Origin: Escherichia coli
Lineage (GTDB): Bacteria > Pseudomonadota > Gammaproteobacteria > Enterobacterales > Enterobacteriaceae
Length of the DNA: 1,672 nucleotides
Reading direction: 5' to 3' (one strand)
NCBI RefSeq assembly: GCF_003334355.1
Contig: NZ_QOWP01000082.1
The first letter of the stretch is position 1; every line of letters begins with the position of its first letter. The position numbers and the translations under genes are program-made. Below are positions 1 through 1,672 of the stretch, in pieces. The notes under the pieces were generated by a model that did not search any database, was not told where the DNA came from, and saw only the letters and a list, made by a program, of their open reading frames with translations.

Positions 1-54
1 TTGTCTGTAATCGGGGATAATAGAAATATGTTCCATCAATTTTTTAAGTTCCAT
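1..54 (-). CDS. ISAs1-family transposase (H-repeat-associated protein, ORF-H), N-terminal 18 codons only; CDS continues beyond the left edge (5' end in window, 3' partial).
   Basis: Minus strand reads TAAGGAGAACAAA ATG GAA CTT AAA AAA TTG ATG GAA CAT ATT TCT ATT ATC CCC GAT TAC AGA CAA = MELKKLMEHISIIPDYRQ. This matches the N-terminus of E. coli H-repeat / ISAs1-type transposases (YhhI/YdcC/YbfD-like) as I remember them. Consensus SD AAGGAG sits 6 nt upstream. H-repeats are classically found next to Rhs elements. Too short to appear in the ORF track. Confidence 0.65.
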   Translation of the reverse strand, partial: MELKKLMEHISIIPDYRQ

Positions 55-60
55 TTTGTT

Positions 61-66
61 CTCCTT
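61..66 (-). promoter_or_regulatory. Shine-Dalgarno (AAGGAG) of the ISAs1/H-repeat transposase gene
   Basis: Plus-strand CTCCTT at 61..66 is AAGGAG on the minus strand; 6-nt spacer (AACAAA) to the ATG at 54..52. Confidence 0.55.
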
Positions 67-161
67 AATTATGTAAGAAGTATTTGATCATGTATAAGCA
101 ATAAAAAACAGCTTCAGGTAATAAGGAATATCTCAATTTTTAAACATAAAATGCGAATTAT

Positions 162-545
162 TTAGTGCAAAAAGTGAACTTTTGATGATCTTTCCCTGGC
201 CGTTGACTTGATTGCCGTAGCTCGAACGCAAGCACTCTTATCATTCAATGCCATATTGTTCAAAATATTAAAAACATTATCTTCGCATTTTTTGCAAATT
301 TATATTTGCCCGAGTATAAATGCTCCGATATCTCTACGGATATAATTTTTGTCAGTGCAGAATTCAATTGCCAATCTAACAGCGTCTTGCCCCCCTCTTA
401 ACTGTAATACTCTGGCAGATGAAATCCTTTTCAAGGAATTGCGATCATCAAGTAAGCGAAATAATTCATCATCATTTAGTTTCTTACATTTATTATATAA
501 ACCATACTCTTTACTTGCCTTTCTTTTCTGGTATGTATTTGACAT
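162..545 (-). pseudogene. yibA: yibA-like HEAT-repeat protein gene (Rhs-associated, putative orphan immunity gene), disrupted. The intact ORF 545->300 encodes only the N-terminal 81 aa; an in-frame TAA at 302..300 is followed by 45 more in-frame codons to a second stop at 164..162.
   Basis: Translation MSNTYQKRKASKEYGLYNKCKKLNDDELFRLLDDRNSLKRISSARVLQLRGGQDAVRLAIEFCTDKNYIRRDIGAFILGQI* matches the N-terminus of E. coli YibA (about 280 aa, HEAT-repeat protein) as I remember it. After the TAA the same frame reads ICKKCEDNVFNILNNMALNDKSACVRATAI..., which continues the remembered YibA sequence (a Lys codon there in K-12), so the stop looks like a nonsense substitution. Strong SD GGAGG at 558..554, 8 nt upstream of ATG 545..543. 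The track ORF 300..560 starts at an ATG that overlaps the SD and is less likely the true start. Confidence 0.75.
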
Positions 546-649: not shown

Positions 650-1033
650 TTATTTTCCGTGGCCAAAATTCAGAATTCTCCCATCATTTTTGCCTATTTC
701 TATAATAAAAACCCCACCAGCAATTTGGTCTGAGTGAATGGTACCTTCAACAACCCAACTTGTTGTTAACTCAGTGATTTCGTATGGTTTTTCTTCTTCT
801 GCGGCATCCTGTCCATAACGATTCTTAACATATATCTCAGCTAATTCCAATGCTATAGCTTTATTTTTAACCAAATTTCTAACGGTATATTTACCTTCAC
901 TTTCATACTTGCGCATTATTTTAATATTATTATTACACTGCGCCCATGTGTTGTATGTAAAAACAAACAAAGATACAATGACACAGTTCCTAAACAATAT
1001 TTTTTTACATATTACCATGAACTCTGCAGACAT
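650..1033 (-). CDS. Putative Rhs immunity protein (RhsI-like), 127 aa, with predicted N-terminal Sec signal peptide. Alternative start at ATG 1018..1016.
   Basis: Six-frame ORF immediately downstream of the rhs CT, overlapping its last codons by 29 nt (1005..1033), which is the typical rhs/rhsI arrangement. AAAGGA Shine-Dalgarno at 1046..1041, 7 nt upstream of the ATG. N-terminus [31 protein letters not shown]|QC has a basic n-region, an 11-residue hydrophobic core and a T-W-A cleavage-like site. The mature part contains ...[19 protein letters not shown]...[16 protein letters not shown]..., which resembles small immunity-type proteins but is not assigned to a family. Confidence 0.7.
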
Positions 1034-1672
1034 TAGGTAATCCTTTTCTGTTTGTTATTTCCTTCCCGTGGTTATCTATTGCTTTAAAATTACCACTGGG
1101 CGTACCTAAATAAAATGACTTGATATTGTTATCTTTACTTTTAACTATTTTCTCATCTTTACCTGAAAATATTTCGTCCCAATATTCTCCATGACTATCT
1201 GCACCATGAGTATGATAAGCTGATACTTTCTCAGTACCATTAGGGCAAGGGCTATTGAATGGATATGATCCTTTTCTTTCTCCTCGGTTAGGTGCTGTTG
1301 AGAAATATCTGCCACTATTATCCTTACATATTAAACCAGCGAACTCTTTATCTTCGCAAATAGATTGGCTATTTATTTTATTTAAGGCGTCATATGCGGT
1401 GCTATCTATAGAATCAAATTTATCTGGACCTATCATAGCGGATAGTGTGCCGCAAAGACCATTAGTACATGCCCCCGATTTTGCATCCTCCCACATAGAT
1501 AAACCCAGGGGGTCGATGTCTGATATCGGATTCAATTGATATCCATACAGGTTCCATCCCCCCTTCAGCCCAATCGGATCCTGAGTGATATATCGCCCCT
1601 GCAGCGGGTCATAATAGCGGTGGCGGTTGTAATACAGGCCGGACTCCTCATCATACTGCTGCCCCGGCAGGC
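1005..1672 (-). CDS. Rhs-family polymorphic toxin, C-terminal portion (3' partial; CDS continues beyond the right edge). Conserved core end is followed by a 164-aa variable C-terminal toxin domain of unrecognised family.
   Basis: Minus-strand frame is open from 1670 to the TAA at 1007..1005. It translates to [57 protein letters not shown], then [18 protein letters not shown]...NVCRVHGNM*. The YDPxxGRYxxxDPIGLxGGxNxYxY...PxxxxDPxGL pattern is the Rhs repeat-associated core end that demarcates the variable CT (DPLGL = 1514..1500). The ORF track starts this ORF at 1535 only because it reads a TTG Leu codon as a start; the frame is open upstream. GC is about 59% in 1561..1672 versus about 33% in 1021..1140 (counted by hand). 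Confidence 0.9.
1041..1046 (-). promoter_or_regulatory. Shine-Dalgarno (AAAGGA) for the putative immunity gene, embedded in the 3' end of the rhs coding sequence
   Basis: Plus-strand TCCTTT at 1041..1046 is AAAGGA on the minus strand, 7 nt upstream of the ATG at 1033..1031. Confidence 0.5.

Follow-up and report, generated by a model that had tools for sequence, protein, structure and literature searches.

Organization of the rhsB locus

The analysed window, a stretch of 1672 nucleotides of Escherichia coli DNA, was identified as the 3' end of rhsB on the minus strand, within the rhsB-yhhH-yhhI region (99.8% identity over the full length). At least 80% of the window was found in 2696 of the 5426 complete E. 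coli genomes, K-12 included. Compared to K-12 MG1655, 4 mismatches were counted in 1670 nt. None of the database genomes matched the window at 100%, the best reaching 99.8% over the full window. All genes of the window lie on the minus strand, namely the end of rhsB, yhhH, a truncated yibA-like gene and the end of an ISEc1/H-rpt element. Gene order and coordinates agree with those of the K-12 RhsB element (rhsB-yhhH-yrhC-yhhI; b3482-b3484), which represents the same locus and differs from the window by only few point differences. The window is in this way firmly placed at the rhsB locus. The following features were assigned:

1005-1670, minus strand (read from 1670 down to 1005): last 221 codons of rhsB, translated as a single open frame
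1500-1672, minus strand: last 57 codons of the RhsB core, RHS repeat-associated core domain with aspartyl-protease plug, delimited by the ends of the models NF041261 and TIGR03696
1515-1550, minus strand: last 12 codons before DPLGL, 36% GC, delimited by the mismatch profiles against rhsA and rhsC and the whole-gene change point at 1548
1005-1499, minus strand: C-terminal toxin tip of RhsB, 164 codons plus stop, DUF4329 / Tox-JAB-2 according to Pfam
650-1033, minus strand: yhhH, predicted immunity gene with NTF2 fold (Imm-NTF2-2), 33% GC, from RefSeq annotation and PF15631
199-597, minus strand: end of an rhsA-type tip, spacer and yibA-like remnant, from identity to the K-12 rhsA locus and RefSeq
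1-198, minus strand: end of ISEc1 (H-rpt) with the first 18 codons of the transposase gene yhhI (54 down to 1), 28% GC, from H-rpt identity and annotation

The RhsB core and its two DPxGL motifs

Scores for the core models were computed on the complete gene of a 99.8% identical genome, as the window holds only the last 57 core codons. Using the model RHS_core (NF041261), 2640 bits were obtained for residues 1-1247 of this complete gene (cutoff of 2000), and the YD-repeat model TIGR01643 matched with an E-value of 2.5e-40. The model Rhs_assc_core (TIGR03696) spans residues 1170-1247. Two DPxGL motifs, 17 residues apart, were found in the window, DPIGL at 1566-1580 and DPLGL at 1500-1514. A type VI secretion Rhs toxin was reported to have the same spacing of 17 residues at its autoproteolytic site; its catalytic Asp resides in the second motif, and the chain is cleaved after it (PMC8636562). 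In Rhs proteins, the tip is set off by the motif PxxxxDPxGL (Poole et al., 2011; PMC3150448). With its core model, its PxxxxDPxGL end, its variable tip and its GC contrast, rhsB was classified as a gene for an Rhs / YD-repeat polymorphic toxin.

Comparing RhsB with solved structures of type VI secretion Rhs effectors and of the Tc toxin component TcC (7pq5, Tre23/Rhs1; 8qjc; 4o9x, TcdB2-TccC3), the plug sequence with two DPxGL motifs was found in common. The homology reaches as far as the L of the second motif, where several of the deposited core chains end as well. Beyond the core plug, the Tox-JAB-2 tip matched none of the solved structures by sequence. For the type VI secretion Rhs effectors, cleavage after the second motif was demonstrated experimentally (PMC8636562), while for E. 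coli RhsB it is expected from homology.

GC content of core and tip

The first-pass annotation of this DNA had reported, from hand counts, a GC-rich core end next to an AT-rich tip and immunity region. Both counts were reproduced exactly, with 58.9% GC at positions 1561-1672 and 33.3% at 1021-1140; for 1490-1672 a value of 54.1% was obtained. Its assignment of DPLGL to 1514..1500 was also correct, as the minus strand reads GACCCCCTGGGTTTA at 1500-1514, which translates into DPLGL. The GC break sits within one open frame that runs from 1670 to 1005 on the minus strand. A boundary between genes, between frames or between coding and non-coding DNA was excluded as the cause of the break, since the frame is uninterrupted over this whole range.

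Only 173 nt of the core lie in the window, and local GC there ranges from 33% to 60%, which leaves room for the view that the break arose by chance in so short a sequence. When the window was tested for the best two-segment split, the log-likelihood ratio amounted to 16.1. None of 5000 mononucleotide shuffles (highest value 12.2) and none of 5000 shuffles of 30-nt blocks (highest value 13.8) reached this ratio. For the complete rhsB of the 99.8% identical genome, which is different from the window at 3 positions, the ratio rose to 60 for all bases and to 73 for third codon positions. The same contrast was seen along the entire 3.7 kb of the core and in all K-12 rhs paralogues. Chance was rejected on the grounds of the shuffles, the whole-gene test and the K-12 paralogues, and we regard its probability as practically nil.

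For the whole rhsB core (codons 1-1247) a GC content of 61.8% was determined, with 72.7% at third codon positions (GC3), compared to 36.6% and a GC3 of 24.8% for the tip. A uniform profile, when computed properly, had been named in the first-pass annotation as an outcome against its reading; the GC3 values of 72.7% and 24.8% show that the profile is not uniform. All eight K-12 rhs genes and fragments display the contrast, with 57-63% GC in the core and 37-43% in the tip. The fall in GC at the core/tip junction is real, and the observation is confirmed. It is also already known: the GC contrast between core and tip has been published and has been textbook knowledge since the 1990s. The earlier description as a "known signature" was right, as a G+C-rich core and an A+T-rich core-extension have been described (PMC2935791).

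The low GC content of the tip might simply reflect its amino-acid composition or selection, for example low expression or silencing of AT-rich DNA, with core and tip having always evolved together. In agreement with this, the first and second codon positions lose GC as well (about 0.65/0.45 before the junction, about 0.40/0.40 after it), and the DPLGL codons stay GC-rich through the residues that they encode. Nevertheless, the fall is greatest at the mostly synonymous third codon positions, so the drop in GC is not simply a by-product of the encoded amino acids. Amino-acid composition alone was rejected for this reason. Moreover, in other strains this core at this locus ends in an unrelated tip, a related tip is found on a different core subfamily, and the unrelated K-12 tips are all low in GC. 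Taken as a whole, an explanation by composition or selection in a core and tip of common history is thus considered very unlikely, and a junction between parts of different histories is preferred.

Position and sharpness of the junction

The break had been called sharp and had been placed exactly at DPLGL. The position was upheld insofar as DPLGL lies inside every support interval; the sharpness was not, as the change is spread over about 1430-1551. Reading from the core into the tip, 59% GC was found at 1551 and above (to 1672), 36% at 1515-1550, 60% in the DPLGL codons at 1500-1514, about 50% at 1430-1499 and about 33% below 1430. The stretch of about 50% GC thus covers roughly the first 23 codons of the tip. 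Using the window alone, the change point was located at 1437. The whole gene yielded a change point at 1548 for all bases, with a 2-lnL support range of 1438-1597, and one at codon 1251 for third codon positions, with a support range that corresponds to window positions 1470-1551. The compositional switch is located to only about 60 nt either way.

Boundaries were also obtained from the protein models and from sequence comparison. Both NCBIfam models, RHS_core (NF041261) and Rhs_assc_core (TIGR03696), stop at residue 1247, the L of DPLGL, which corresponds to window position 1500, as does the homology to the solved Rhs and Tc toxin structures. In genomes lacking the RhsB tip, BLAST alignments to the window stop between 1500 and 1527. 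Comparing rhsB with K-12 rhsA and rhsC at the nucleotide level, the genes were found near-identical until about 37 nt before the D codon of DPLGL, at approximately window position 1551. Mismatches per 30 nt amounted to 0-4 up to about -60, and then increased to 4-5, 9-14 and 16-18 on approaching and crossing DPLGL. Within the last 12 core codons rhsA and rhsC diverge strongly from rhsB, with the PxxxxDPxGL residues kept, and after GL the sequences are unrelated. This loss of identity between the paralogues near 1551 fits the change point of 1548 that was found for the GC content of the whole gene.

From these alignments, the unit that differs between the paralogues begins about 12 codons before DPLGL, near 1551, and not at 1500. 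Since near-identity to rhsA and rhsC collapses there, the codons at 1515-1550 would be assigned to the tip, and would travel with it and not with the core. The exchanged unit would regularly include the last 12 or so core codons, and each tip may accordingly come with its own fitting set of xxxx residues in PxxxxDPxGL. In practical terms, the compositional junction is fuzzier than had been claimed and starts about 12 codons before DPLGL.

The toxin tip and YhhH

The tip was assigned to DUF4329 (PF14220, E-value of 1.1e-39, positions 2-114 of the 116 model positions). It contains an E in KEFAGL (within 1332-1349), the motif HTH (1206-1214) and an SxxD motif (SGKD, 1155-1166). The E, the HTH and the S and D were found invariant in an alignment of six homologues. 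DUF4329 is the Tox-JAB-2 family with the signature E, H[ST]H, S and D, and is paired with Imm-NTF2-2 (Zhang, 2012; PMC3482391). Toxin JAB domains have only been suggested as possible nucleases (PMC3482391). In the literature on DUF4329 in combination with Rhs, as far as it was available to us, no experimental report of toxicity or of a target of the tip was found.

The gene yhhH lies directly downstream of the Tox-JAB-2 tip and overlaps the end of rhsB by 29 nt. YhhH matches Imm-NTF2-2 (PF15631, E-value of 3.4e-26), the domain covering residues 60-127 only. Searches with NCBIfam models yielded no match for either the tip or YhhH, and both were recognized by Pfam alone. By analogy to such pairs, YhhH is predicted to be the cognate immunity protein of the RhsB tip.

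Two further features of yhhH were observed. Its start lies 29 nt inside the end of rhsB (1005-1033), with the purine-rich stretch GGGAAGGAAA about 25-35 nt upstream and AAAAGGA nearer to the start. These sequences suggest that yhhH may be translated independently of rhsB. Furthermore, YhhH (650-1033, minus strand) and its paralogue YbbC (L005:5582-5950) have hydrophobic, signal-peptide-like N-termini, that of YbbC being MKYSSIFSMLSFFILFAC with a lipobox-like LFAC. If both proteins were exported, the site of action of the Tox-JAB-2 tip might be the periplasm, where it could for example attack cell-envelope targets as a metallopeptidase. We consider this reading, like the fit of the xxxx residues to each tip, rather doubtful. 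A periplasmic action would depart from the published suggestion of nuclease activity for toxin JAB domains.

Composition of the DNA downstream of the junction

According to the first-pass annotation, everything to the left of about 1500 had been acquired separately from the core. This stands for the tip cassette, which is exchangeable, and does not stand for the region as a whole, which consists of at least three modules and not of one acquisition. All three are AT-rich, with 28-37% GC. The first module (598-1499) is the RhsB-tip/yhhH cassette. The second (199-597) comprises approximately the last 32 nt of an rhsA-type tip, a spacer and the first 117 codons of yibA, and shows 97% nucleotide identity to the K-12 rhsA locus (L003:6286-6684). 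Its yibA-like remnant, a HEAT-repeat sequence with an in-frame internal stop, has 94.9% amino-acid identity to residues 1-117 of YibA. It corresponds to the pseudogene yrhC of K-12 and carries the RefSeq note 'internal stop; incomplete'. The third module (1-198) resembles the H-rpt copies of the K-12 rhsC and rhsE loci, with nucleotide identities of 87-99%. The yibA remnant is cut at 198/199 by this ISEc1/H-rpt element. Judged by these identities, the DNA at 199-597 is the leftover of an earlier cassette. The practical gain is that the downstream DNA proves to be a stack of separate remnants rather than a single acquisition.

In a separate observation, the features under the match in NZ_CP189959.1 (strain c1-17) were rhsB, yhhH, an rhs core fragment and yibA. 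The alignment extends to query position 4201, well beyond the point at which ISEc1 cuts yibA in the window. The layout of NZ_CP189959.1 may predate the insertion seen in the window.

Other tips on the same core

An invariable linkage of tip and core in related genomes had been named in the first-pass annotation as the outcome that would speak against separate acquisition. The linkage was found not to be invariable. Strain MS 69-1 carries next to nikR an rhs gene that matches rhsB at 95.6% identity over nt 1-3714, after which a ybfO-type tip follows. This alternative tip matches the K-12 orphan ybfO, including the junction PVQYIDSMGL, and a ybfC-type immunity gene lies next to it. Farther downstream, the strain retains 87 nt from the end of the RhsB tip, yhhH with a frameshift, and intact yibA; these pieces look like displaced leftovers. 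The layout is common to 273 genomes, counted by the best place per genome. The ybfO/ybfC cassette is also present at the rhsC locus, and in O157:H7 strains it was found on full-length cores at a different chromosomal position.

Beyond the alternative tip, immunity-type genes and gene fragments are stacked at the nikR-linked locus of MS 69-1 (L007:13801-17697). Their order is a ybfC-like gene, an NTF2-fold gene, DUF6258, pentapeptide fragments, the RhsB-tip end with frameshifted yhhH, intact yibA, an rhs fragment and sel1. Most of this stack is common to the same 273 genomes.

A cassette paralogous to that of the window is found in K-12 itself, on another core. RhsD-CT and YbbC belong to the same families as the RhsB tip and YhhH (DUF4329 / Tox-JAB-2 and Imm-NTF2-2), with 53% and 56% amino-acid identity to them, respectively. 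The gene for YbbC lies downstream of rhsD, as yhhH does of rhsB. The same drop in GC is seen there, from 63.3% in the core to 36.5% in the tip. The RhsD core belongs to a different subfamily (77% amino-acid identity to the RhsB core) and lies at another chromosomal site. Together, the alternative tip on the same nikR-linked core and the paralogous cassette on another core bear out the reading as "core plus exchangeable tip".

The tip of the window is carried by only 2695 of the 5426 E. coli genomes, compared to only 2096 genomes with the K-12-type contiguous nikR-rhs start; like the 273 above, these counts use the best place per genome and do not form a complete partition. In some genomes, the match to the gene annotated as rhsB begins only at the rhs start. 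The difference between 2695 and 2096 may stem from rearrangements among rhs copies, a variant upstream region or the listing of the best place per genome.

Related tips with 74-76% identity were found after DPLGL-type motifs in one Salmonella enterica subsp. salamae record (76%) and in one other record. A search of a large protein database with the tip yielded no low-GC donor lineage of the cassette and only enterobacterial Rhs tips or fragments (among them E. coli, Shigella and Salmonella salamae); this search was word-indexed, the matches listed were mostly fragments, and it does not represent a fair census. An acquisition from outside is suggested by the composition and the patchy linkage, and not by a traced transfer.

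The composition of the core calls for the opposite view to be considered as well, in which the core would be foreign and the break would mark the arrival of this GC-rich rhs core next to AT-rich local DNA that is simply older or evolves differently. With 61.8% GC the core exceeds the flanking nik and rbbA-yhhJ genes (56-58%), and the average GC content of E. coli, about 51%, is also below that of the rhsB core. Many strains possess nikR with no adjacent rhs gene, which indicates that the whole element is accessory. The core is thus atypical too, and either part, or both, may be foreign. With both parts atypical, a foreign core would nevertheless add to the explanation by two different histories and not replace it. 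Against the core as the sole foreign part, the tip/immunity cassettes move independently among cores and loci, and the downstream DNA consists of cassette remnants and an insertion element and not of native sequence. We give the view very little credence, and retain the junction between a core and a replaceable cassette.

Proposed explanation and comparison with known systems

We propose, with high confidence, that the GC break marks the junction of two parts of rhsB with different evolutionary histories, a GC-rich YD-repeat core and an AT-rich replaceable cassette of tip and yhhH. The core (about 62% GC, GC3 about 73%) is the part common almost unchanged to rhsA, rhsB and rhsC. The cassette (about 36% GC, GC3 about 25%) comprises the Tox-JAB-2 (DUF4329) tip and the predicted NTF2-fold immunity gene yhhH. 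Directly observed were the identities and composition of the parts, the boundary of the core models, a different tip on this core at this locus, remnants displaced downstream, and a paralogous cassette on another core.

For autocleavage, secretion, toxicity and immunity, as well as for the recombination mechanism, we rely on published work. Judging from its homologues, RhsB most likely follows the standard mechanism, in which the core would form a closed shell that encloses the tip and ends in an aspartyl-protease plug with the two DPxGL motifs. The plug would cut the chain just after the second motif, DPLGL, and free the tip, which a type VI secretion system would deliver to a neighbouring cell, while YhhH would protect the producer. 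To our knowledge, K-12 has no working type VI system, and delivery in such strains is doubtful.

Following the published model of exchange, a new tip/immunity cassette would arrive with a short piece of core and recombine into the resident core by homology. The old tip would be pushed downstream, with fragments left behind. With a crossover within the shared core, the last 12 or so codons before DPLGL would belong to the incoming cassette, and for this reason the fall in GC and the loss of paralogue identity would start near 1551 and not at 1500.

The finding as such adds little and repeats published results (Hill laboratory; Jackson, 2009; Zhang, 2012). The GC contrast between core and tip was among the earliest features reported for these elements, and it already underlies the accepted view that Rhs proteins are polymorphic toxins whose tips can be swapped. 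For E. coli rhs genes, work of the Hill laboratory described a G+C-rich conserved core of approximately 1200 residues, followed by a divergent, A+T-rich core-extension that is 130-177 residues long (summarised in PMC2935791). Jackson et al. (2009) found the same GC contrast in Serratia, with tips common to several loci and different tips at one locus, and proposed tip displacement by recombination (PMC2935791). Comparing the rhsB locus with this displacement model and with the orphan rhs-CT/rhsI modules (Poole et al., 2011; PMC3150448), agreement was observed in the tip demarcated by PxxxxDPxGL, in the low-GC trough that extends beyond the gene, in the displaced remnants of tips and immunity genes, and in the occurrence of the same tip at different loci. 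The differences are minor and of degree, as the rhsB locus carries a remnant of the yibA type and strains of the MS 69-1 type carry a longer stack.
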